A stretch of DNA of 25,756 nt. It comes from a virus. Taxonomy: Duplodnaviria; Caudoviricetes. Of the stretch, positions 1 through 16,140 are shown one piece after another. Location: the IMG/VR virus record IMGVR_UViG_3300034410_000162, positions 1 through 25,756 of that record; one strand, given 5' to 3'. The notes below the pieces were generated by a model. It was not told the origin of the DNA. It did no database searches and was given only the letters and a program-made list of their open reading frames with translations. The position numbers and the translations under genes were made by a program. Each line of letters opens with the position of its first letter. The stretch's first letter is position 1.

Positions 1-1770
1 GTGCTGCGCTTAGTCTTTGACGTTGAGACTGATGGTTTACTTCCTCAGCTAACAAAGCTTCACTGCATCGAACTGTTAAACGCCGACACCGGCGAGCAGT
101 GGGGCTATGGGCCCAAAGAGATCGAACGCGGTATCGCTGAGCTCGAGGCTGCTGACGAAATCATTGGTCACAACATAATCGGGTTCGACATTCCAGCGAT
201 TAAAAAGGTTTACCGTGACTTCAAAACGAAGGCCAAGGTAACTGACACGCTGGTGTTGTCGCATCTCCTGCACGGAGATTTAAAGAATGAAGACTGGGAG
301 CGTAACTGGCGTGATCAGGATGAGATGCCGAAGCGTCTCTATGGTTCCCACTCTCTAAAAGCCTGGGGCATACGCCTCGGCGACCACAAAGACGACTTCG
401 ATGGTGGTGACTGGAAAGCCTGGTCACCGGATATGCAGAAGTACTGCCGCCAAGATGTCGCCTTGAACCACCGCCTACTCGAGCACCTAGACACCGATAA
501 CTGGTCACAGGAAAGCATCGACCTAGAGCACCAAGCCGCTGAGCTGTGCTTCCGTATAGGCAACAATGGCTGGACATTCAATCGAGACAAAGCATCTGAG
601 TTATATGCTGAGCTGGCCGCTGAGCGGTCAACGATTGAAGCCGAGCTGCACGACTTGTTCGAGCCTTGGGAGATACGCACTCCGTTTATACCTAAGGCAA
701 ACAACAGCAAGTATGGATACGAAAAGGGTGTCCCTACTGAAAAGGTGACTGTCGTTGAGTTTAACTACAACAGCCGCCGCCACATCGAAAGGTGCCTCAA
801 GCACAAGTACGATTGGAAACCAAAGCTTCTCACCAGCAGCGGCCACGCTCAAATAGACGAGGTGGTCCTTGGCGGTCTTAACTATCCAGAAGCACAGAAG
901 TTGTCGCGGATGTTTCTATTGCAGAAACGTCTGGGGCAGCTCGCAGAAGGGCGTAATGCCTGGATGAAACTCGTCAACACTGATGGACGCTTACGACACC
1001 AGATTGTGCCTAGTGGCACTGTGTCGGGACGCGCCGCGCACCGGTTCCCTAACTTGGGACAGGTGCCACGGGCTACTCAGCCTTTCGGTAAAACATGCCG
1101 AGAGCTGTTCACTGTTCCCCCAGGCTTCAGCCTTGTGGGATCGGATTTGTCCGGCATCGAGCTGCGGATGCTCGCTCACTACCTCGATGATGGTGGAGCC
1201 TATGCAAAGCAGATACTTGAAGGCGACATTCATACGTTCAACCAAACGGCTGCAGGTCTCGAGACACGGGATCAAGCAAAGACGATGATATATGCGCTTT
1301 GCTACGGAGCCGGTCCAGCTCGCCTAGGTGAAATCCTTGGTGCTGGGTTTAAGGAAGGCAAACAACTGCAAGATCGCTTCTTCGCAGGGATGCCAGCCTT
1401 TGTCTCATTAAAGCGTGGGATACAAAAAGCCGCTGATCGAGGATACCTAAAAAGTCTCGATGGTCGTCGGGTTCCAATCCGGTCGGCTCACAGTGCATTG
1501 AATACCCTGCTGCAGTCTGCGGCTGGGTGCATCTCGAAGAAATGGATTTGCTTAGTTGATACTGCGTTGAGGGACGAAGGACTGGATGACAGGACTTATA
1601 CGGTAGCTTGGGTACACGACGAGATCCAGATCGCTTGTTTACAAGGAATTGAAGATCATGTCGGTACTATCGCTGGACGAATGGCGCAAGAAGCTGGAAG
1701 AGCGTTCAACTTATCAATCCCAATCGACGCAGAGTACTCCTGGGGAACAACCTGGGCTGATAGCCACTGA
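1..1770 (+). CDS. T7 gp5-like family A DNA polymerase with 3'-5' exonuclease domain
   Basis: ExoI FDVETDGL, ExoII GHNIIGFDIP, SHSLKAWG, motif A GSDLSGIELRMLAHY, motif B RDQAKTMIYALCYGAG, motif C AWVHDEIQ, C-terminal WADSH. GTG start at the first base of the window. Confidence 0.97.
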   Translation: MLRLVFDVETDGLLPQLTKLHCIELLNADTGEQWGYGPKEIERGIAELEAADEIIGHNIIGFDIPAIKKVYRDFKTKAKVTDTLVLSHLLHGDLKNEDWERNWRDQDEMPKRLYGSHSLKAWGIRLGDHKDDFDGGDWKAWSPDMQKYCRQDVALNHRLLEHLDTDNWSQESIDLEHQAAELCFRIGNNGWTFNRDKASELYAELAAERSTIEAELHDLFEPWEIRTPFIPKANNSKYGYEKGVPTEKVTVVEFNYNSRRHIERCLKHKYDWKPKLLTSSGHAQIDEVVLGGLNYPEAQKLSRMFLLQKRLGQLAEGRNAWMKLVNTDGRLRHQIVPSGTVSGRAAHRFPNLGQVPRATQPFGKTCRELFTVPPGFSLVGSDLSGIELRMLAHYLDDGGAYAKQILEGDIHTFNQTAAGLETRDQAKTMIYALCYGAGPARLGEILGAGFKEGKQLQDRFFAGMPAFVSLKRGIQKAADRGYLKSLDGRRVPIRSAHSALNTLLQSAAGCISKKWICLVDTALRDEGLDDRTYTVAWVHDEIQIACLQGIEDHVGTIAGRMAQEAGRAFNLSIPIDAEYSWGTTWADSH

Positions 1771-2068
1771 GGAAGAGCTGTTTCTACAGCTTCCAATGAT
1801 GGCCGCAGTCTACACTGTTCTGCACAACACTTGGCGTTCTCCCTACACAACCAAATCAGACTTTGCCAGGGCTCACGCCAACTACGTTGCGATGTGCTCC
1901 AGCGAAGACCTGATTACCACAAAGATTGCAGAAGACACCTGGGGCAACGAATGGCTCATCACTGAGATGGGCATGGCGTTCATGCAGGAGCTGCAGTTCA
2001 CATTAGAAAGGATGAGTAATGAGCTCGGAATCGACTTCCCGACCCCAGAAGCTGACCCTACTGATTGA
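1658..2068 (+). CDS. T7 gp5.7-like winged-helix protein (putative host RNA polymerase modulator)
   Basis: YTVLHNTWRSPYTTKSDFARAHANYVAMCSSEDLITT...GNEWLITEMGMAFM aligns by eye with T7 gp5.7 (YLKVLQAIKSCPKTFQSNYVRNNASLVAEAASRGHIS...GGAWEITASGTRFL). It lies between pol and exonuclease as in T7. Start is uncertain: ATG 1658 has AAGGA at 1643-1647; alternatives are 1796 and 1799. Confidence 0.75.
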   Translation: MSVLSLDEWRKKLEERSTYQSQSTQSTPGEQPGLIATEEELFLQLPMMAAVYTVLHNTWRSPYTTKSDFARAHANYVAMCSSEDLITTKIAEDTWGNEWLITEMGMAFMQELQFTLERMSNELGIDFPTPEADPTD

Positions 2069-2792
2069 TGCTGATTTATTCTTATACCAGGCCGCTGCGG
2101 CTGCTGAGGATGAGATCGATTGGGGTGATGATGTTTGGTCGCTAGCTACTGACCTGACTGAAGCCAAGCAAATCTTTAAAGATAAGCTGAGCCAAATCCA
2201 CGACCGCTTAAAGACAAAGGAACAGATCCTGTGCTTCAGCGACCGTGAAAACTTCCGACGAGATGTTGACCCGTCATACAAAAGCAACCGCAAGAAGACC
2301 CGTAAGCCGGTAGGCCATAAGGCTCTTATTGATTGGGCTAAGTCTACTTACAAGCATTACTGGAAGCCCAAGCTTGAGGCTGACGACTGCATGGGCATCA
2401 TGGCGACCAGCCCTGGAGCCAACACAATCATCGTGTCTGACGATAAAGACATGAAGACAATCCCAGGGCGTTTGTATCGACCGATGGCTGACGAGATGCT
2501 GACGATCTCTTTCGAGGATGCTCAGCGCAACTTCTACACGCAGGTTCTGACCGGTGACACGACAGACGGATACAAAGGCATCCCTGGTATAGGCCCAAAG
2601 AAGGCCGAAGCCATCCTTGGGTCACGCCCTGACTGGGGCATCGTCATACACGCCTATCAGAAAGCAGGCATGACGGAGACAGAGGCCAAGAGCCAAGCTC
2701 GGTTGGCACGGATCTTACGCTGGTCTGAATGGGACGCTTCCGAGGGAACCCTAAAACTATGGGAGCCGGAACATGACCGCCAAGCAAGTTAG
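2019..2792 (+). CDS. T7 gp6-like 5'-3' exonuclease (FEN/RNase H type)
   Basis: LLIDADLFLY, YKSNRKKTRKP, LEADDCMGI, IVSDDKDMKTIPG, LTGDTTDGYKGIPGIGPKKA. AAGGA upstream of the ATG. Confidence 0.95.
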   Translation: MSSESTSRPQKLTLLIDADLFLYQAAAAAEDEIDWGDDVWSLATDLTEAKQIFKDKLSQIHDRLKTKEQILCFSDRENFRRDVDPSYKSNRKKTRKPVGHKALIDWAKSTYKHYWKPKLEADDCMGIMATSPGANTIIVSDDKDMKTIPGRLYRPMADEMLTISFEDAQRNFYTQVLTGDTTDGYKGIPGIGPKKAEAILGSRPDWGIVIHAYQKAGMTETEAKSQARLARILRWSEWDASEGTLKLWEPEHDRQAS

Positions 2793-3096
2793 CCGCCGTG
2801 AAAGCTATGAGCAGAGCATGAAGCGCATGTCTAGGGACACAAAGACGAGCAGCCGATCTGATGAGATTAAAGAGCCAACCCATTACGCAAGGTGGGCTAT
2901 CGAGCCGGTCGATATGATCATGCAGAACGGCCTCGAGTTCTGGAGAGGCAACATCATCAAGTACGTCATGAGGGCTGGCTTTAAGAAGGGCAGCTACAAG
3001 ACGACGAGAGAGGCAGAGATTGCCGACCTCAACAAGGCAGCTCGCTACATCGAGATGCGTATCAACCAATTACAAGGCAAGGACATAACAGAATGA
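2773..3096 (+). CDS. DUF3310 family protein (T7 gp1.7 nucleotide-kinase-like)
   Basis: Signature PTHY...IEPVD...FWRGNIIKYVMRAGFK...DLNKAARYI. ATGA overlap with the RNR gene. Confidence 0.85.
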   Translation: MTAKQVSRRESYEQSMKRMSRDTKTSSRSDEIKEPTHYARWAIEPVDMIMQNGLEFWRGNIIKYVMRAGFKKGSYKTTREAEIADLNKAARYIEMRINQLQGKDITE

Positions 3097-5000
3097 ATAA
3101 CGCCATCCGAGAGCTGCCCACCGACTACCAGAACTTTATTGCCTACTCCCGATACGCACGGTGGATGCCAGAGGAAGGTCGCCGAGAGAACTGGGGTGAA
3201 ACAGTAGAGCGTTTCATCGAGAACATCTGCCGCCCTGTTGCCGGTGTAACTTCTAAGGATCTGTCGGAGCTGCGTGATGCAATCCTCAACCTTGAGGTGA
3301 TGCCTTCAATGCGAGCCATCATGACTGCCGGTGAAGCCTCACGCCGAGACAACACCTGCATCTACAACTGCTCATACCTGGCGGTGGATCACCCTCGTGC
3401 ATTCGACGAGGCCATGTTCATCCTGCTGTGCGGCACTGGTGTCGGCTTCTCAGTAGAGCGTGAGTACGTCAACAAGCTGCCTTGTGTGCCAGCCAGCTTG
3501 GCTGACAGTGACGACACGATCGTCGTGCAAGACAGCAAAGAAGGATGGGCTAAGGCCTACCGCAAGCTGATTAGCTCGCTGTATACTGGTGACATTCCCA
3601 AGTGGGATGTGAGCAAGGTACGCCAGGCCGGTACCAGGCTTAAGACCTTCGGAGGCCGCGCCTCAGGCCCCGAGCCACTCGACCAGCTCTTTCGCTATAC
3701 AATCGAGAAGTTCCAAGCCGCAGCCGGTCGCAACCTCAATGCCTTTGAGTGTCACTCAATCATGTGCAAAGTGGGTGAGGTGGTTGTCGTCGGTGGTGTG
3801 CGCCGGTCAGCAATGATCAGCCTCAGCAACCTGCAAGACGATAAGATGCGAACAGCCAAGAGCGGCAACTGGTGGACTGATCGTCCTGAGATGGCGTTGG
3901 CTAACAACTCTGTCGCCTACACTCAGAAGCCGGACATGGATGCCTTCCTGAAGGAATGGCAGAGCCTTGTCGAAAGCAAGAGCGGTGAGCGTGGTATCTT
4001 CTCACGAGTTGCAGCTCAAGAACATGTCGCCTCTCACGGTCGTCGTGACCCTGAACATGAGTTCGGCACTAACCCGTGCAGCGAGATCATCTTGCGCCCT
4101 AATCAGTTCTGCAACCTCACTGAGGTGGTCGTCCGAGCTACGGACACCGAGGCATCACTGAAGCGAAAGGTGCGCCTAGCGACGATGCTCGGCACGATCC
4201 AATCAACCTACACGAACATGCCATACCTGCGCCCCATCTGGTCTAAGAACACCGAGGATGAGCGTCTGTTGGGTGTGTCACTCACAGGGATTATGGATAA
4301 TGAAATCACTAGCAAGCCAACTGAAAAGCTTCTTAACAAGCTTCGTGACCTCGCTGTATCGACGAACAGCAGTTATGCTGAGCAGCTTGGAGTTAGTCCA
4401 TCTGCGGCCATCACTTGCGTCAAGCCTTCTGGCACTGTATCGCAGCTTGTGGATAGTGCTTCTGGCATTCATGCTCGTCATAGCGGTCAGTATGTACGCA
4501 CTGTACGGGGTGATAACAAAGATCCTCTCACGCAATTCATGATGGACCAAGGCGTACCTAACGAGCCTTGCTTCATGAAGCCTGACAACACGACTGTGTT
4601 CTCGTTCCCAGTCAAGAGCCCCGAGGCTGCAGTCACTCGCAATGACATGTCGGCTCTCGAGCAGCTTGAGCTGTGGAAGACGTATGCTTTGCATTGGTGT
4701 GAGCATAAGCCCAGCGTCACCATCTCGGTGCGAGACGACGAGTGGATGCATGTGGGTGCTTGGGTGTACGACAACTTCGATTTACTGTCGGGCATCTCAT
4801 TCCTACCACACTCGGATCATAGTTATAGACAGGCACCTTACCAGGATGTCGAGAAGAAGATCTGGAACCAGGTCGCTCGGCAGATGCCTAAAGAGATCGC
4901 CTGGGCTGAGCTCGCCACATATGAGCAAGGCGAGGACAACACTGCAGGATCACAGACGCTGGCTTGCTCCGGTGATAGCTGTGAGATTGTGGACATATAA
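3093..5000 (+). CDS. nrdJ: Ribonucleotide reductase, probably monomeric class II (adenosylcobalamin-dependent)
   Basis: MPSMRA, YNCSY, GTGVGFS, VGGVRRSAMISL, TNPCSEI (thiyl Cys), CNLTEV, TCVKPSGTVSQL and C-terminal redox pair CSGDSC. No beta subunit gene nearby. Confidence 0.92.
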   Translation: MNNAIRELPTDYQNFIAYSRYARWMPEEGRRENWGETVERFIENICRPVAGVTSKDLSELRDAILNLEVMPSMRAIMTAGEASRRDNTCIYNCSYLAVDHPRAFDEAMFILLCGTGVGFSVEREYVNKLPCVPASLADSDDTIVVQDSKEGWAKAYRKLISSLYTGDIPKWDVSKVRQAGTRLKTFGGRASGPEPLDQLFRYTIEKFQAAAGRNLNAFECHSIMCKVGEVVVVGGVRRSAMISLSNLQDDKMRTAKSGNWWTDRPEMALANNSVAYTQKPDMDAFLKEWQSLVESKSGERGIFSRVAAQEHVASHGRRDPEHEFGTNPCSEIILRPNQFCNLTEVVVRATDTEASLKRKVRLATMLGTIQSTYTNMPYLRPIWSKNTEDERLLGVSLTGIMDNEITSKPTEKLLNKLRDLAVSTNSSYAEQLGVSPSAAITCVKPSGTVSQLVDSASGIHARHSGQYVRTVRGDNKDPLTQFMMDQGVPNEPCFMKPDNTTVFSFPVKSPEAAVTRNDMSALEQLELWKTYALHWCEHKPSVTISVRDDEWMHVGAWVYDNFDLLSGISFLPHSDHSYRQAPYQDVEKKIWNQVARQMPKEIAWAELATYEQGEDNTAGSQTLACSGDSCEIVDI

Positions 5001-8574: not shown

Positions 8575-9107
8575 ACCGCCTGGCACCGGCTTTAGCCCTT
8601 GGAGATGAGTACAGATCATTTCTCAAGCACAAGGCCGACCAGGGAGCCTTCCGAGATGCGCTTATGCGCTTCCAGGGGGCAGTAGAAGAGAGCGATGACC
8701 GTCTAGGTCACAACGCAATGGCTGCGATGGTACCTGTTACGCATAATTTTGCGGATGGTCAGTATATAAGACAGATGGACATGGCGGCTGGCACGATTGT
8801 TGTCGGTCATATACACGCCAGAAACCACCCCTACTTCATTACCAAGGGTGATTTGTCGATAATAACAGAACAAGACGGAGAGCAGAGGATACAGGCCCCT
8901 CACAACGGCATAACATTAGCCGGAACCAAGCGTATCTTATACGCGCATGAGGACAGTACTCTGATTACGGTACATCGAACCGACAATCTTGACGTTAATG
9001 AGATTGAACGTGAGGTCCTGGCTAAGAGCTTCGATGATCTCGAGCTCACTCCCATGCAAACCGAGCACATAGAGGCTCTCATAAATAAAATCGGAGAAAG
9101 CAAATGA
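8559..9107 (+). CDS. Cupin-fold protein
   Basis: HNFADGQYIRQMDMAAGTIVVGHIHARNHPYFITKG...AGTKRILYAHED. ATG 8559 overlaps the previous gene's end; start uncertain. Confidence 0.75.
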   Translation: MGRRIDRLAPALALGDEYRSFLKHKADQGAFRDALMRFQGAVEESDDRLGHNAMAAMVPVTHNFADGQYIRQMDMAAGTIVVGHIHARNHPYFITKGDLSIITEQDGEQRIQAPHNGITLAGTKRILYAHEDSTLITVHRTDNLDVNEIEREVLAKSFDDLELTPMQTEHIEALINKIGESK

Positions 9108-10180
9108 GTTTTGCAATAACAGCAGCAGTAGTAGGCGGCGCAGCCTCTTATGCTGGAGCAAGCAAGCAAGCAGATGCCGCAGATGCAGCCTCACGCCGCC
9201 AAATGGCTGGCTTTGAGCTGTCTAAACCGTTTGTGGAACGGATGTACAGCAACTCGGAAGATTATCTTAACGACAGTCTGCAGTATGGTAATTATAAGGG
9301 CCAAACATTAGCGGGTTTTAACCCGTTCTCCCAGCAAGGTTACAACTATCTAGGTAACACTTCTCAGCAGATGATGGGTCAACCTGCAAACTTCATGCAG
9401 ACGACCGGCAATTTCGCTAACAACGCTGCAGGTTTGTACGACCAGGCTCAAAGAGGCGAGACTTTAGACAACGCAACTGCATATGCCACCAACCCAGCCA
9501 ACTACGGTTCTCTTTTGGATGCAGCAATGCGCGATGACACGCGCAGACTGCAAGAGCAGACGCTGCCTGGTATCAACCAGTCTGCCATGGCTAGCAGTAA
9601 CGTCAACGGCTCTCGCGCGGGTGTTGCTGATGCAATCGCTCTTCGCTCTTACGATGATCGTCGGGCTGATGTTGGGGCTAACATTCAGCAGCAACTGATG
9701 GATCGCAGCATTCAACAGCAGAACCAAGATTATTCTAATGCAGTCTCAGCTAACAACAACCTGGCATCGATTTACGGCAATGCATTCGGTATGCAGGGTC
9801 AAATCGGCGACCGCATGGCGGGTGCAGGTGCTGGGCTACAGGCGCGTGAAGCGGCTGAGCTTCAAGATCAGCGTTCTCGTTTCGAACAAGACCGCGATTT
9901 CGGTATGGATCAGTATATCAAATACAATGCTGGCATCTTGAACAACGCACAGATGCAATCACCTCAGAACCCTGTCGTTAACACTGTTGACCCGACTGCT
10001 GCTGCACTTGGCGGCGCAATGTCTGCCTATGGTTTGGCTGGTGGTTTCAATTCTGGCGGGGGCAATCCCTTTGGTAGCTTGCAAACCGGCCCCACAGCGC
10101 AAGCTAGCGGTCAAACGTATGCCCAGCAACCAAATGGTCGGTTTGTAAACCAACGCTTTGTAAACATGGGAGGCAACTAA
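9104..10180 (+). CDS. Ejection / internal virion protein 1
   Basis: Gly/Ala N-terminus (AAVVGGAASYAGASKQA), Gln/Asn/Ala-rich helical body, NGSRAGVA motif. GGAGA SD; position typical of DNA-transfer proteins. Confidence 0.7.
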   Translation: MSFAITAAVVGGAASYAGASKQADAADAASRRQMAGFELSKPFVERMYSNSEDYLNDSLQYGNYKGQTLAGFNPFSQQGYNYLGNTSQQMMGQPANFMQTTGNFANNAAGLYDQAQRGETLDNATAYATNPANYGSLLDAAMRDDTRRLQEQTLPGINQSAMASSNVNGSRAGVADAIALRSYDDRRADVGANIQQQLMDRSIQQQNQDYSNAVSANNNLASIYGNAFGMQGQIGDRMAGAGAGLQAREAAELQDQRSRFEQDRDFGMDQYIKYNAGILNNAQMQSPQNPVVNTVDPTAAALGGAMSAYGLAGGFNSGGGNPFGSLQTGPTAQASGQTYAQQPNGRFVNQRFVNMGGN

Positions 10181-10181
10181 G

Positions 10182-11333
10182 ATGGCACTACCTTTACTCC
10201 CCTTAATTAAAGGCATCGGCCTTTTAGGTCTTGGCGGCACGGCTCTTGGGACTGCTACTACAGGTATGAACCACCTGGCTCAGGGAGCTCCCCAAACGGA
10301 TGTTAACGTACCCCCAGCGTTGATGCCTACCACGGCAACCCCAATGCCCATGCTAAACAATCCGTCAGCAATGGCTCGCTTTGGTGTGCCAATGGCACCA
10401 GTACCGCCGAAGCAAAACATCGGAACTAATGAAATGCTGGCGCGAGCTGGTGGCGCGATTATGTCCAACGCTGCAAAAGGCGGTCCCGCCGCTTATGGCG
10501 CAGGTCTCGAAGCCTATGGCGATATGATGGACAAGAACCGCGAGATGGAGCGTTTGAGTGCTGTCGATCAGTACAATGCTGCTGCCGCTCAGCAAAGTGC
10601 ATTAGGCAAAATGAAGCCACCTGTAGCTCCTATGGGTGCTGAATACACCACTGCAGCCCTGACTGCTATTGAGGGTATCGAGAACGCTGTTGCAAAAGCT
10701 GAAGCGTCCGGCATGAACCCATTTGATGATGTGACAGGCATCATGGGCACAATAATGAAGTACTATCCAGGCTCCAATTCCAATGACGTTTCTTCTCTGA
10801 TCGAGACTGTCGTGTCTTCTGTTGGTTTCGACCGACTGCAAGCCATGCGTGATGCATCTCCAACTGGCGGTGCGTTGGGTCAAGTGTCTGAAGTAGAATT
10901 GAGACAGCTTAACGCTTCTATCGCTAACTTACGTCAGTCTCAGGGTACACCACAGTTTAAGAAGAACCTGAGCATCGTCAGACGACAGCTCGAGCGCACT
11001 GTTTACTTCATGAACCTGCGCGTCCAGCAGTACAATGACGAAATGAGGGGTATTGTTCGTTCATCTAACACTACCTCTGATCAGCTTTATTCTACCTACA
11101 ATCAATATAGAGGCGGTGGAGCTGCACAACCCGCACAACCCGCACAACCTGCCGTACCAGGAACGCAAGCTCAGAATCCTGCTGCTGCCGCTGCTGCTAA
11201 TCCAGCTCCCGCCGCTGCTCCTGCAGCTCCTGGCATCACTAATATGGCACCAGCAGCTCCTGCAGCTCCCCAGCAGCAGCCTCCAACTCTGACGACTCAA
11301 GGCGGTGTCCAGTACCGCCCACTCCCTCAGTAG
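10182..11333 (+). CDS. Ejection / internal virion protein 2 (P22 gp20-like DNA transfer protein)
   Basis: GFDRLQAMRDASPTGGALGQVSEVELRQL motif, hydrophobic Gly-rich N-terminus and Pro/Ala/Gln-rich tail. Confidence 0.7.
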   Translation: MALPLLPLIKGIGLLGLGGTALGTATTGMNHLAQGAPQTDVNVPPALMPTTATPMPMLNNPSAMARFGVPMAPVPPKQNIGTNEMLARAGGAIMSNAAKGGPAAYGAGLEAYGDMMDKNREMERLSAVDQYNAAAAQQSALGKMKPPVAPMGAEYTTAALTAIEGIENAVAKAEASGMNPFDDVTGIMGTIMKYYPGSNSNDVSSLIETVVSSVGFDRLQAMRDASPTGGALGQVSEVELRQLNASIANLRQSQGTPQFKKNLSIVRRQLERTVYFMNLRVQQYNDEMRGIVRSSNTTSDQLYSTYNQYRGGGAAQPAQPAQPAVPGTQAQNPAAAAAANPAPAAAPAAPGITNMAPAAPAAPQQQPPTLTTQGGVQYRPLPQ

Positions 11334-11373: not shown

Positions 11374-14300
11374 ATGGCAATCTATGAGATCAATGGTGCT
11401 CGTTATGAAATTGACGATACCAATCTAAACCAACAACAGCTCGAAGCTGCTGTCGAAGAGATCGCAGCCCAACCCCGTGACAGTGCTCTAGGATACAGTG
11501 TCGATCAGGCACAGATGTTAGGATACAAAGGTACTGAAGCTTTCGGTAGTGCATTACAAGGCCTCGGCCTCGACACTGTAGGATCCGCGTTGCAAGGCTT
11601 TGGAGCTCGTGGAGTAGCTCAGCAGGAAGAAGACATTGCTCGTGGTAATTACCAGGCTCAATACACTGGATCACTCTTAGAACAAGATGATATCGGCGAT
11701 GCCGCTGGATGGCTCCTAGAAGGTATGCAAGCTAATGCTGCCTCTGGTGGATTTGCCTTGGCAGGTACCGCCGCCGCTGCCGTAGCTGGGCTTGTTAGCG
11801 CACCGGCAGCGATGCTTCTGGGGGGCGCAACCCTCGCTGGTTCCTTCTTAATGGGAACAGGCGAAAGCGCATTAGAACAAGAAGAAAAGACAGGAAACTA
11901 CGACAGCTCTGTTGCCCTGGGCACAGGTGCCTTGATTGGTTTCTTAGATCGGTTCGGTGCCGGTCGCGTGTTCAGCCCTAGCGAGCTGGGCAAGATGTCA
12001 GTCAAAGAGCTTTACGAAAAGCTAGCCAAGAAAGGCTACACCGAGGCAGCTCAAGAAGTTGCAAAAGAGATCGGCAAGAAGGCCGTGACTGAGGGCGTAA
12101 CCGAAGCAACACAAGAAGCTGCAATCATAGGCTCTGCCGCTAGTCAGGGCGGTCAGTATACAGCCGGTGAAGTAGGCAACCGCCTAGTCGATGCTGCTGC
12201 GCTGGGCACGGGCTTTGGTGGAACTGCCGCAACAGCTCAGACGACTGTGCAAGGTGCTGCTCAGGCTGCTGGCTTTGCCAAGTCTTCTACACAGCGTCAA
12301 GCTGATACACTTTCTAACGCCGCAGCGACTATGCTTGAGCGCGGTATGGATACCGGCGATCAGGCGATGATTGATAAGGCTAAAGAAGCTGGCTTTGCAA
12401 TTGAGTCAGCCAAGAATGGTGACTTAGCTCCGCTGAAGAAGCTTGCTGTAGAAGAACAAGAAAACAACGACCCGTCCGAATTAGCTAAAGCAAGCTTTGC
12501 TCAGCGTCTGCAGGGCATCATTGATGACGAGTCAGCAAGTGACCAGCCGTTTGATGTCGAGAACATTGACGTAAATGATGCTCAAAGTGCTCGCGGTATT
12601 GTGGACTCAGCGCACGGATCGATTAAGGAAGGCATTAACAACTTAAAAGCAATCCTTAAAGAAGGCGGCACTCTGGCTGATGGCACTTCATATGCTGGCC
12701 TGAACCCTCAAAACGCTAAGACCTTTGACGAGCTGATGCAGCGCGTCGAGGCGATGGTTGGCGTTAATATGGCAAAGAATAAAGTCAAGAAGACCATTAC
12801 TGAGAAGCAGGTCGGAAAGATCAAAGAGCTTGTCGGAGACACCCAAGAGGGTCAGCAGCTCGTTAACCTAATTCGCGAAAGCGTTGTCCTGACCGACTTA
12901 CACAATCAGGGTTACCAGGGCGGTCTTAGTAAAATCACAGACAAGCTAAACCCATTTGCCCCAACCGGCTCCTACAACACTTCAGCACTCGTTCAAGCGG
13001 CGGTCCGTGCAGGTGTAACAGGTGCCGCTGCCGCAGGTACAGGCGGCATGAGCTTGGCAATCCAGCTTCCTATCGTCGGTTTTGGTCGTTTGTATGATGC
13101 CCTAGGTGGTGACCGCAGCACTGTGTCATCGTTTATCCGTGACAACAAAGCTGGCGATGTTCTACCGGAACCAACGCCTCCTAGTATTGTTGCAGACCAA
13201 GCCGCAGCTCAACAACGTCGAGAACAAGTCTCAGCAGCTATGCAGCCACTATTAAACCAAGGCAAGAAACCCTCTGGCGGTCCTGTTGCTAAGGTAATTG
13301 AAAGGGCTCAGGAACAGTTAGTAGGGATCGAGGTAACGCAGGACGATTATGATGCGGCTGTTGATTACCAAATCGCTACGGTTACTACTCCTTTGCAAAA
13401 AGAAGTCTTCCAAGACATTAAGGAACGCAAGTACAGAGACCAGATGCCCGAAGATGCTATGGCTGTTCTTACAGAAACAATCGTAACAATGAAAGATGGC
13501 GAGGCACAGGCTGCACAAAACCGGCTGCGTAAATCTCAAGAAGCTATGATTGCGTTCGAACGAAACCAGCGCATTGAGCAAGGCAAAGCCGACAACCGCG
13601 CAGCAGTGCAAAATCTCCTCGATCAGCTCAACGCTGACAACGTGATCAACAAAGGCCACAAGGCGCAGCTCCAAAGTGCTTTGTCAGGTACCTTCCTGCG
13701 TGACCTCGGTCGCAACCCAATGGCGACTGTCGAGAACACCATCAAGGATCTGCAGGACAATGGTGTACCGCAAGAAGCGATCGACACCTACATCATGCCC
13801 TACGTCCAGCGCGTTGCACGTCAGCAGGACTCACGCCCTCAAGAGTTTACTGAGGAAAGCACTGTATTGGAACGCGAGCCGGTTGAAGCTGCACCGCGTC
13901 GAGCACATAGAGAAATCGGTGAGCTTCTAACTCAGCAGCAGCTCGATAAGTACGGCAAGCCTCTGGAGCCAATGGGTGACGAGGCTGACTTTACTACCTT
14001 AGTCGATGCAATGACTGAAGAGGCTGAATACCAGCTCGCTCAAACTCCTGATGCTGTAACGTGGTATGCGGATGACATTGACACAGCCATGAATACGACA
14101 AACGAGTACATGCCTAGGCTGTTCGACAGTGCCGACAATCGGCAGATTATGTTTGTCTTAGCTGCACTGACATCTGTTGGACATACGCCTACCATCAACT
14201 GGCGATATGCTTCTGACCTGATGCGTCATTATATAGATACAGGTGAGATTGGTATTATAGACACTGCCGAGCAGTTTCAGAAGAAAGACCGCTTTGGCAA

Positions 14301-16140
14301 GCCCCGCATGGTTAACCCACAGACTAGAAGCCTGTTCGGGCTAAAGTCAGGAAGTGTCGAGCCTGGTTTGAAGATCTTCCGGCATATGCTGGAGACTAGG
14401 GGTGTAAAAGACACGCTGGATTTCTTATACAGTAACCAGAAGAAATCAGACATCGACGCTATCCGTAAGGAAGCCGGTTTTGGGCCGCAGGGTAAAATCA
14501 AAGGCGGCAAGAATGCTGAGGTGCCTGGTATCTTTATGTTTGGGCCAAAGGTTGGGCCTTTCTTTCTCAACCTAAATGGCATTAACGAAGTTACAGTAGA
14601 CGTTTGGGCTACTCGCACCTATCGTAGATACACTGGCGATCTTCTTAAGAAAGATGCTAGCGATGGTAACGGCTTAAACGAACAGCCAAACGAAGTTGAG
14701 CGTCCTACTATGAAAGAGGCGTTTACCGAAGTTGGTAACCGACTAAATATAACTCCACAAGCTGCTCAGGCCCTCTTGTGGTACTATGAACAAGGCCTAT
14801 ATAGAGATTATGGTGCAACAGTTAAGAGTGAAAGCTTTAGTAATGCAGCAGAAACGTACAAACAGAGACTGGGCGCAGAGCAAGGAAGCGGGGGAACTGC
14901 TGAGAGCATCTCGGGAACTGCTGGAGGCATCCTATCGGAACAATCAGCCCAACCCGAGCTCCCAGGCATCCTCGCCGAGCCGCAGGGAAGTACCCAACCC
15001 GCCGAGCCTGTTCAAGAAGCAGTAGTACCTACTACTCGCCAGATAGCAGCTCAAGAAGATAACGCTAAGCCTCTCTTTGAAGTAGGAAAGCGCGGCGGTG
15101 AGTTCCAGAACGGTATTAACAAAACCGAAGACCTACAGCGTTTAGCTAAGGCTCTTGGTATTGTCGTTAAGACCTTCCAGTCTATGGCGGCGATGAACCG
15201 TGATCGTGGATCTAACGGCAAGTCTGGTAGAACGACTATGGGCGTAGCTACGATTGCACATCGCGGCGCACAACCTCCTAAAATCTCCATTATGGAGCCA
15301 GGCTTTCCACGTCGGCGTAAAAACAACAGTTACCCCGTACAAACTAAAGAAGACTTTATTACAACATTTGCCCATGAAATCGCCCATGTAATAGAGGCTC
15401 TGAATATGAGCACGGCGACACCGGAGGCGGCTCTACAGTTTTACGAGCCAAATGTACGAAGAAGTCCAATTGCGACTGACCAGTATTGGGTCAATAGCGG
15501 CTCGTTCCGCGAGGCTCTTCTCGATCTAGTTCGTTATGCTCACGGAGAAGGTGACAAGTATGCTTTGCCGGAGGGATGGACACAAGAGGACGCTAAGCTC
15601 GTCGAAGAAGAAATAAAGTTTCTTCAAGACTACGCTATGGTCAATGTTGACATAGGCGATGGCAGAAGTGTTACCTCCTTTGTTCGCGGCCCATTCGGTG
15701 CCGACCCTGAGGCCTTTGTGGAGGCTTCTTTGGAGAAGTACCGTGAGGCTAGGGAACAGTTTATTAAAGATGGTATTGATCCCAACAGGATAGTCAGCGA
15801 GGCTGAGTATGCTTCCGAGGCGCGTCGAAGAGCAACGCAAGCTCGAGACAGTTACATCCGTAACCCAGCCGAGTTTGCTGTAGATCCGATCTGGACGTAC
15901 ATAGTCGATCCTGCTTTTGCACGAGACACTATGCCTAAGACAACTGAGTTCATCCGTAAGCTCTTAAACAATAGCGGCTTTAGTAAGAACACGATTAAGT
16001 TCTATTCATCACCTATGGCAACAATAATGGCTGTCGCTTTGGCAGTACTCGCAGCCAATGGCGGCGAAGAACCAGAAGAGCAGCCTATCCCACCAGGCGC
16101 GTTGTCGCCTCAAGGGCAGGGGGCTCTTTCGGTTATATGA
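11374..16140 (+). CDS. Large ejection protein with C-terminal HhH glycosylase-like and zincin metallopeptidase domains (polyvalent-type)
   Basis: 1588 aa with GAGGTG SD. Gly/Ala hydrophobic segments in the N-terminal part; GPKVG...VTVDVW..R...AQALLW at aa 1057-1136; HEIAH at aa 1334-1338; YIRNPAEFA near aa 1500. Confidence 0.8.
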   Translation: MAIYEINGARYEIDDTNLNQQQLEAAVEEIAAQPRDSALGYSVDQAQMLGYKGTEAFGSALQGLGLDTVGSALQGFGARGVAQQEEDIARGNYQAQYTGSLLEQDDIGDAAGWLLEGMQANAASGGFALAGTAAAAVAGLVSAPAAMLLGGATLAGSFLMGTGESALEQEEKTGNYDSSVALGTGALIGFLDRFGAGRVFSPSELGKMSVKELYEKLAKKGYTEAAQEVAKEIGKKAVTEGVTEATQEAAIIGSAASQGGQYTAGEVGNRLVDAAALGTGFGGTAATAQTTVQGAAQAAGFAKSSTQRQADTLSNAAATMLERGMDTGDQAMIDKAKEAGFAIESAKNGDLAPLKKLAVEEQENNDPSELAKASFAQRLQGIIDDESASDQPFDVENIDVNDAQSARGIVDSAHGSIKEGINNLKAILKEGGTLADGTSYAGLNPQNAKTFDELMQRVEAMVGVNMAKNKVKKTITEKQVGKIKELVGDTQEGQQLVNLIRESVVLTDLHNQGYQGGLSKITDKLNPFAPTGSYNTSALVQAAVRAGVTGAAAAGTGGMSLAIQLPIVGFGRLYDALGGDRSTVSSFIRDNKAGDVLPEPTPPSIVADQAAAQQRREQVSAAMQPLLNQGKKPSGGPVAKVIERAQEQLVGIEVTQDDYDAAVDYQIATVTTPLQKEVFQDIKERKYRDQMPEDAMAVLTETIVTMKDGEAQAAQNRLRKSQEAMIAFERNQRIEQGKADNRAAVQNLLDQLNADNVINKGHKAQLQSALSGTFLRDLGRNPMATVENTIKDLQDNGVPQEAIDTYIMPYVQRVARQQDSRPQEFTEESTVLEREPVEAAPRRAHREIGELLTQQQLDKYGKPLEPMGDEADFTTLVDAMTEEAEYQLAQTPDAVTWYADDIDTAMNTTNEYMPRLFDSADNRQIMFVLAALTSVGHTPTINWRYASDLMRHYIDTGEIGIIDTAEQFQKKDRFGKPRMVNPQTRSLFGLKSGSVEPGLKIFRHMLETRGVKDTLDFLYSNQKKSDIDAIRKEAGFGPQGKIKGGKNAEVPGIFMFGPKVGPFFLNLNGINEVTVDVWATRTYRRYTGDLLKKDASDGNGLNEQPNEVERPTMKEAFTEVGNRLNITPQAAQALLWYYEQGLYRDYGATVKSESFSNAAETYKQRLGAEQGSGGTAESISGTAGGILSEQSAQPELPGILAEPQGSTQPAEPVQEAVVPTTRQIAAQEDNAKPLFEVGKRGGEFQNGINKTEDLQRLAKALGIVVKTFQSMAAMNRDRGSNGKSGRTTMGVATIAHRGAQPPKISIMEPGFPRRRKNNSYPVQTKEDFITTFAHEIAHVIEALNMSTATPEAALQFYEPNVRRSPIATDQYWVNSGSFREALLDLVRYAHGEGDKYALPEGWTQEDAKLVEEEIKFLQDYAMVNVDIGDGRSVTSFVRGPFGADPEAFVEASLEKYREAREQFIKDGIDPNRIVSEAEYASEARRRATQARDSYIRNPAEFAVDPIWTYIVDPAFARDTMPKTTEFIRKLLNNSGFSKNTIKFYSSPMATIMAVALAVLAANGGEEPEEQPIPPGALSPQGQGALSVI

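Follow-up and report, generated by a model that had tools for sequence, protein, structure and literature searches.

The window analyzed here is the whole of a 25.8-kb linear virus record (IMGVR_UViG_3300034410_000162), 64% complete, in which the gene for a giant protein of 1588 residues directly follows two genes that match ejection proteins. Within this protein lies a domain of about 300 residues with the predicted fold and the catalytic residues of helix-hairpin-helix (HhH) DNA glycosylases, and based on its conservation, its modeled structure and the slot that its gene occupies, we propose that it is an enzyme that excises a guanine-type base and is delivered at phage entry. The genes concerned and the main parts of the giant protein are as follows.

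9104..10180, plus strand: upstream ejection protein gene 1, matching phrog_4287, "DNA ejection protein" (E 1e-10)
10182..11333, plus strand: upstream ejection protein gene 2, matching phrog_2534, "released from the phage upon host infection" (E 2.6e-7)
11374..16140, plus strand: giant protein (1588 aa) in the third ejection-protein slot, a polyvalent-type carrier of the glycosylase-like domain; the gene order is the same in the relatives L010 and L011
13951..14868, plus strand: OGG2-like HhH-GPD glycosylase domain (aa ~860-1165), related to DUF7178 and phrog_3842, as indicated by family matches, profile search and predicted fold
15049..16083, plus strand: variable C-terminal module with HEIAH (aa 1334-1338) and E1500, likely the zincin metallopeptidase (MPTase) of polyvalent proteins

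The initial annotation had recognized an OGG1/EndoIII-like glycosylase-lyase from three motifs, and these are located where it placed them: FGPKVG at aa 1056-1061 (with K1059), VTVDVWATR at aa 1073-1081 (D1076) and AAQALLW at aa 1130-1136 (Q1132 and W1136). Because a loose version of their spacing arises in 182 of 5000 shuffles of the giant protein, the motifs by themselves are only suggestive and serve as a lead, and it is conservation and fold that carry the case; a tighter pattern, designed after the alignment had been viewed, arose in 0 of 5000 shuffles. Conservation was counted in a profile search made without a motif filter, of which the best 150 of 2571 matches, minus 5 that were already in the set, gave 145 relatives. 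As these are the top scorers the counts lean towards conserved members, and conservation in loci that came from scans selecting on the motifs was not used as evidence. In addition to three of the residues listed below (K1059, Q1132 and W1136), W1078, G1069 and G1147 are invariant in all 145 relatives, and the Asp is replaced only once, by Glu. The features within the domain, with these counts, are given here.

14062..14067, plus strand: W897-Y898, invariant (144/144 each), which probably line the pocket
14173..14199, plus strand: S934...N942 motif (S in 144/144, N or D in 142/144), in register with T-P-Q-S of OGG2 according to a non-significant profile alignment
14434..14541, plus strand: putative insertion of ~31 residues in the HhH hairpin relative to OGG2, from a weak profile alignment and the secondary structure of the model
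14548..14550, plus strand: K1059, predicted catalytic HhH lysine (145/145)
14560..14562, plus strand: F1063 (K+4), predicted base-stacking face, corresponding by spacing to I203 of QNG1 (F in 141, Y in 4 of 145)
14599..14601, plus strand: D1076, predicted catalytic aspartate (144/145), at a K-D spacing of 17 in 74, 18 in 48 and 19 in 22 relatives
14767..14781, plus strand: Q1132-x3-W1136 (145/145 each), of which the Gln is predicted to read the Watson-Crick edge of guanine and the Trp to stack on the base; aligned to D200/W204 of OGG2

The wedge position, residue 936, is variable (G in 78, Q in 27 and N in 10 of 144), and there is no Cys in aa 860-1169. In comparisons with 13 orthologues that are more distant, identity is 53-58% in the domain versus 9-35% in the other long regions of the protein, and the ratio of nonsynonymous to synonymous divergence (dN/dS) of the domain against the relative L002 is 0.18; both values are what a fixed chemical substrate would lead one to expect.

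The fold was predicted by AlphaFold2 from an alignment of 51 sequences. The domain model (predicted local distance difference test score, pLDDT, of 91.7; predicted template modeling score, pTM, of 0.89) is almost entirely helical, has an extra N-terminal helix relative to OGG2, and starts the second helix of the HhH motif at the residue after K1059. An exhaustive structure aligner run against 48,161 chains returned 23 rows at Z≥5, every one of them an HhH-fold protein, and the first outsider came at Z 4.6. The best match is TmOgg, an OGG2 enzyme (Z 11.4, root-mean-square deviation 4.0, 197 of 209 residues aligned), followed by QNG1 (Z 9.3), NTHL1 (8.9), AGOG (8.8), EndoIII (8.2) and hOGG1 (8.1). 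With this aligner helical models can reach a Z near 13, but the clear gap to the outsiders and the 197/209 coverage allow the fold assignment to hold. The predicted HhH-GPD fold and the Lys/Asp pair, which is intact at a spacing of 17-19 as in DNA glycosylases, are therefore as the initial annotation had it, but OGG1 and EndoIII are not the closest comparison, since OGG2 is nearer by the Z-scores above. Sequence comparison was far less decisive: global hhalign runs against OGG2 and EndoIII were unsuccessful, a local EndoIII match had P 0.08-0.12, PF00730 gave no match at E≤0.001, and PF22175 was not among the families listed. The profile alignment with OGG2 is nevertheless collinear and pairs D1076 with the catalytic Asp, Q1132/W1136 with D200/W204 and S934 with T46, with the Lys register shifted by one residue between two runs. 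Going by the modeled fold and the catalytic residues, the domain is a member of the HhH-GPD superfamily, but it does not qualify as an OGG1, OGG2 or EndoIII enzyme.

The differences from each known group are specific. Like the domain, the OGG2 enzymes (TmOgg 3n0u, SsOgg, MjOgg; Ogg-HhH PF22175) have a two-lobed all-α core without an A-domain and collinear K, D and D/Q-x3-W, but the identity is only 12%, the residue at K+4 is Phe and not His, Gln replaces Asp, the wedge varies and the hairpin carries its additional ~31 residues. Moreover, the free carboxylate of the C-terminal Lys in OGG2 (nine residues after the Trp; K213, invariant in the OGG2 alignment) is unavailable to an internal domain, as here the chain continues for 450 residues and residue 1145, at that position, is variable (K in 34/145). 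OGG1 shares the Q-x3-aromatic reader and the K-D spacing, but its N-terminal β-sheet A-domain with the N7-H sensor Gly42 has no counterpart in the model, to which hOGG1 aligns only over residues 117-325. The D-x-W-x-x-R-x-x-N-R segment resembles the D-T-H-x-x-R-x-x-x-R helix of EndoIII, but, with no Cys in the domain, neither the four-Cys Fe-S cluster of EndoIII nor the mechanism of the amino acid:DNA transferase aGPT-Pplase2, which needs a catalytic Cys with a neighboring Glu, is possible.

Faucher (2012) equates Q315/F319 of hOGG1 with D194/W198 of OGG2 and D218/W222 of AGOG, and attributes the discrimination of 8-oxoguanine (8-oxoG) to an acceptor for N7-H, which is a different one in each subfamily. 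In QNG1 the pocket around 7-deazaguanine consists of K199/I203/D231/D298/W302, its HhH hairpin is non-canonical and insertions block the DNA cleft, and Dag1 (bioRxiv 10.1101/2025.10.29.685425), which cuts 7-deazaguanine DNA, has K118/D132/D184/W188. By analogy, a K/D/[Q,D]-x3-W pocket is that of a guanine-type N-glycosylase (OGG, AGOG, QNG1, Dag1) and not proof of 8-oxoG repair. The claim that Gln-x3-aromatic reads 8-oxoG therefore survives in part: the motif is present and would read the guanine face, but it is not specific for 8-oxoG, as QNG1 and Dag1 have it too. Likewise, the catalytic Lys does not prove lyase activity because QNG1 keeps it. QNG1 differs from the domain by a K-D spacing of 32 (against 17-19), by its blocked DNA cleft and by a C-terminal carboxylate where our domain is internal. 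Dag1 resembles it as an HhH glycosylase with a K/D/D-x3-W tetrad in phage-host conflict, and is set apart, by description only, in being host-encoded with a K-D spacing of 14. Two bacterial Ogg-HhH-like proteins (L092:1132-2118 and L093:1378-1863) have K, D and D-x3-W without the OGG2 C-terminus and are candidate Dag-type defense glycosylases.

Judged by sequence, the family is widespread and is found mostly inside giant phage proteins. A six-sequence profile matched 2571 clusters (at 50% identity) at E≤0.001 and 730 at 1e-30; among the 145 top relatives 106 have at least 1000 residues and 4 have fewer than 450. Only 6 contigs of metagenome-assembled genomes matched in GTDB, and the family thus looks phage-borne. 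Residues ~860-1165 match only Pfam DUF7178 (23.3 bits, E 6.7e-5, short of the 27-bit cut-off) and phrog_3842; DUF7178 is also matched by 42 of the 51 aligned members at E≤1 (best 6e-12) and carried by 29 of 30 Atlas matches (score 0.96). A stand-alone relative, Dorin gp6 (197 aa), matches the domain profile with a probability of 95.6% (E 1e-8). The small phage proteins of DUF7178 (PF23802) and phrog_3842 are hence the closest family, with the common motifs WY, SP, K-x3-F-x2-N, T-V-D-x-W and Q-x3-W, but they have ~200 residues and stand alone at genome ends, in contrast to the ~300-residue domain fused into giant proteins of the virion block, and by the Pfam cut-off the domain is related to DUF7178 and not a member of it. 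Some small relatives are already labeled "glycosylase" by GenBank annotators. The domain had no match in NCBIfam or among the LPD models of Pfam, and when the PDB was searched by sequence, using the domain and each of the two alignments as queries, no glycosylase came up; the PPR-repeat matches from these searches were discarded as summed-repeat artifacts. An Atlas search without DUF7178 gave scores of ≤0.80, with Ogg-HhH and AGOG clusters among them, which is chance level and was not counted. In BFVD, ranks 14-40 include many other large phage proteins with a weak match to the fold (E 3e-4 to 5e-2), which suggests further clades of the domain in polyvalent proteins.

From the slot of the gene we propose that the domain probably travels in the virion within an ejection protein and is injected with it. 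The ejection-protein location that had been claimed is confirmed by the two upstream matches given above. In the podovirus OANV1 the domain is in the 2986-aa gp16, behind the tail tube and three smaller genes, which is a matching slot, and in G033 the carrier is flanked by genes matching internal virion proteins. A complete stand-alone member of 352 aa lies between a portal and a MuF-like head gene, and in CRP-738 a divergent clade is encoded two genes after the portal (gp40). Relatives of stand-alone Dorin gp6 occur in 142 phage records, and 38 of the 40 rows listed, which are redundant, start within 10 kb of the record end; another of these, ICBM2 gp3, adjoins the terminal repeat. The relatives thus appear to fill three "time-zero" slots, as ejection-protein fusions, as portal- or MuF-adjacent genes and as DUF7178-like genes at genome ends. 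The architecture is consistent with such a role, as the giant protein, like the polyvalent proteins, is large, probably multidomain, encoded among virion genes and provided with an HEXXH+E motif, and the zincin peptidase is described as the commonest polyvalent domain (Iyer et al., 2017; PMC5512222). H1334, E1335, H1338, E1341 and E1500 are invariant in 16 proteins and in 8 aligned sequences, and HExxH is present in 76 of the 106 large relatives, although the module itself had no Pfam or PDB match. Scanning 25 carriers revealed ART-PolyVal in 6, LPD38 in 4, HATPase in 2 and LPD22, GNAT, NUDIX and methyltransferase domains in 1 each, with 11 having no Pfam family. An obligate pairing of the domain with its own ADP-ribosyltransferase was considered and rejected, as a custom ART profile missed the window protein and all 20 of its closest relatives.

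The synonymous divergence (dS) against L002 is 0.13 in the glycosylase domain and saturated in the peptidase region, so the gene is a mosaic. Since, in addition, the terminase (96%) and capsid (93%) of close relatives are about as identical as the domain, its near-identity is not purely due to selection, and it is the peptidase that is swapped or evolves fast. This HEXXH module is hypervariable: between relatives with 95-100% identity in the glycosylase domain its own identity is 54-56%, and it may be swapped or may target a host protein. The very end of the giant protein (window 16041-16140) has a hydrophobic helix (aa ~1557-1574) together with a tail that is conserved, acidic and rich in proline, which may serve to anchor the protein in a membrane or as a packaging signal.

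We now put forward the mechanism that we consider the best explanation of these data. That the domain is an active guanine-type N-glycosylase delivered at entry we give a probability of about 0.8, and that its substrate is oxidized guanines, of the 8-oxoG or formamidopyrimidine (FapyG) type, in the phage's own incoming genome, excised before replication, a probability of about 0.37. In this reaction the flipped base would be stacked between F1063 and W1136 with its Watson-Crick edge read by Q1132, and D1076 and K1059 would break the glycosidic bond, possibly with nicking by an apurinic/apyrimidinic (AP) lyase activity, leaving a gap to be filled by host repair enzymes; the C-terminal HEXXH module may serve to free the domain. 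Oxidized guanine is favored because the nearest enzymes excise it, the substrate looks fixed, the lesion predates entry, the phage is marine and action in cis needs no more than a few copies. A few injected copies should be enough because the lesion is already present at entry. A review describes the oxidation of guanine by singlet oxygen, also in phage DNA.

A number of observations weigh against oxidized guanine as the substrate or against the assignment that underlies it. The wedge is Gly in 78/144 and the HhH hairpin carries an insertion. No known 8-oxoG sensor was identified, the A-domain Gly of OGG1 and the C-terminal carboxylate of OGG2 being absent and the Gln of AGOG unmappable, as for the equivalents of AGOG Gln31/Trp69 the fold search gave ranges only. 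Foldseek against the PDB had no match at E≤0.001, with TmOgg best at E 0.031 (TM 0.60 by target), although 8-oxoG glycosylases took ranks 1-3 and 5-12, and the profile comparison with 41 OGG2 sequences was not significant (hhalign P 0.038-0.078). The conflict effector ART-PolyVal is found in 40 of the 145 relatives with the custom profile. The stand-alone relatives include soil actinophages, so that sunlight is not the common factor, and they are located at genome ends, which are usually transcribed first and rich in anti-defense genes. Hosts generally have their own MutM and MutY, and no virion proteomics was found. In phage PM2, DNA damage did not track the loss of infectivity according to a review, and QNG1 and Dag1 use the same pocket for 7-deazaguanine.

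Among the alternatives, we regard as rather unlikely, but close behind oxidized guanine and ahead of the others, a Dag1-like weapon that excises 7-deazaguanine-type bases and nicks host DNA (with Dpd-type marks) or the DNA of a rival phage, sparing the carrier's own unmodified genome. The shared tetrad and activity of Dag1, the second place of the 7-deazaguanine reader QNG1 among the fold matches, the lack of a known N7-H sensor and the company of conflict domains all point this way, and Iyer et al. (2017) allow for anti-superinfection roles of polyvalent proteins. However, Dag1 is likened to the domain by description only and not by sequence or structure, no pocket for an aromatic 7-substituent was mapped (W299 of QNG1 is Ala or Ser here), and few injected copies would suit action in cis better than the destruction of a chromosome or of a late rival. 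QueC is found in 0 of 50 carrier records and in 0 of 16 that are near-complete, which is compatible with an unmodified genome but weak, as most phages lack QueC and the blank has low power. An improbable alternative is that the enzyme counters defense in cis by removing a host-imposed guanine adduct (ADP-ribosyl-guanine or alkyl) from the entering DNA. Delivery at entry by three routes would fit this, as would the polyvalent context and the fact that one slot of related phages is filled by either of two clades, which have diverged but share their catalytic residues, but an invariant Gln reading the Watson-Crick edge is ill-suited to a bulky N2 adduct, selection on the domain is purifying and not diversifying, and marks of the DarT1 type are placed during replication on DNA that is single-stranded, with NADAR hydrolases to reverse them.

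We give equally long odds to a QNG1-like N-glycosidase acting on a small or single-stranded substrate, be it cGAMP, c-di-GMP, (p)ppGpp, oxidized dGTP or queuosine in tRNA. A putative insertion in the HhH hairpin (QNG1, too, has insertions there, and they block its DNA cleft), the loss of a conserved wedge and a NUDIX domain in 1 of the 25 carriers scanned are in its favor; the K-D spacing of 17-19, the EndoIII-like Arg helix after the Asp, the absence of the QNG1 C-terminal carboxylate and the OGG2 size of Dorin gp6, which leaves no room for an insertion, are not. Least probable is that the domain is a non-catalytic module for DNA binding or sensing, a base-modifying transferase, or part of a protein that is never packaged. 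Inactive EndoIII domains do serve as sensors in END nucleases, but that END domain is without catalytic residues whereas K and D are invariant here. HhH-fold amino acid:DNA transferases are known in phages and give a structural match (Z 6.3), but they need the Cys that the domain does not have. As to packaging, there is no direct virion evidence, but the position of the gene is kept in relatives, and proteomics has found a polyvalent protein in phi24B virions. Apart from these individual readings, we suggest tentatively, and at somewhat less than even odds, that an offensive guanine N-glycosylase is delivered at entry by thousands of aquatic phage lineages and, in its stand-alone form, by soil phages. 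This would be a phage-side mirror of Dag, directed at host or rival DNA marked with 7-deazaguanine, which it would cut, or at the nucleotide signals of immunity, from which it would remove the guanine.

The wider locus runs from DNA polymerase A, an exonuclease and ribonucleotide reductase to a virion block with an SU10-type portal, capsid and adaptor, and its first part (window 1-5000) couples T7-like replication genes to an SU10-type head module. As the best cultured match of the terminase is only 38% (Roseobacter phage CRP-7), the window represents an uncultured marine podovirus group, and marine metagenomes from 5 studies (P3-P7) contain it with word shares of 0.41-0.58, possible source runs being left out. 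Contigs from RNA libraries covered parts of the gene but were not accepted as evidence of expression, as two of the runs resemble one data set and may hold DNA. The close relative G008 (L100-L102), a 57.4-kb virus record, additionally encodes a T7-like RNA polymerase, an integrase, MazG and thymidylate synthase (L101). It has two virion modules with two portals, terminases and capsids and is probably two related phages joined. The giant protein of its second module, which has several frameshifts, shares its scaffold with the window protein, but its version of the domain comes from a divergent clade that is closer to DUF7178 and in which the catalytic motifs are kept. Limnohabitans phage DC33 (L084, PQ492659.1) is filed under Inoviridae, but has a 39-kb genome with a tailed-phage-like virion block and a 3125-aa domain carrier, so this taxonomy line is likely wrong.

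What is new here is the predicted deployment, as modeled, of an OGG2/AGOG-type glycosylase as virion cargo. The literature gave no description of a base-excision enzyme as cargo of a polyvalent or ejection protein, within a thin coverage of subscription papers, and no direct precedent among packaged repair enzymes. The main text of Iyer et al. (2017) does not contain "glycosylase", "base excision" or "endonuclease III", nor does the 2022 follow-up contain "glycosylase" or "HhH". A large family of 2571 clusters is represented in Pfam only as a sub-threshold DUF, and DUF7178 now gains a testable activity in cultured phages, namely OANV1 (gp16), DC33, CRP-738 (gp40), ICBM2 (gp3) and the cluster A mycobacteriophages. 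If the domain is an offensive enzyme, it would be a new class of virion-borne counter-defense or phage-versus-phage weapon, and, if it is specifically a Dag1-like weapon, a phage-side move in the newly described glycosylase arms race. If it is the repair enzyme that we favor, phages would pre-load repair for damage suffered while free in the water, which would bear on the infectivity of marine virions.

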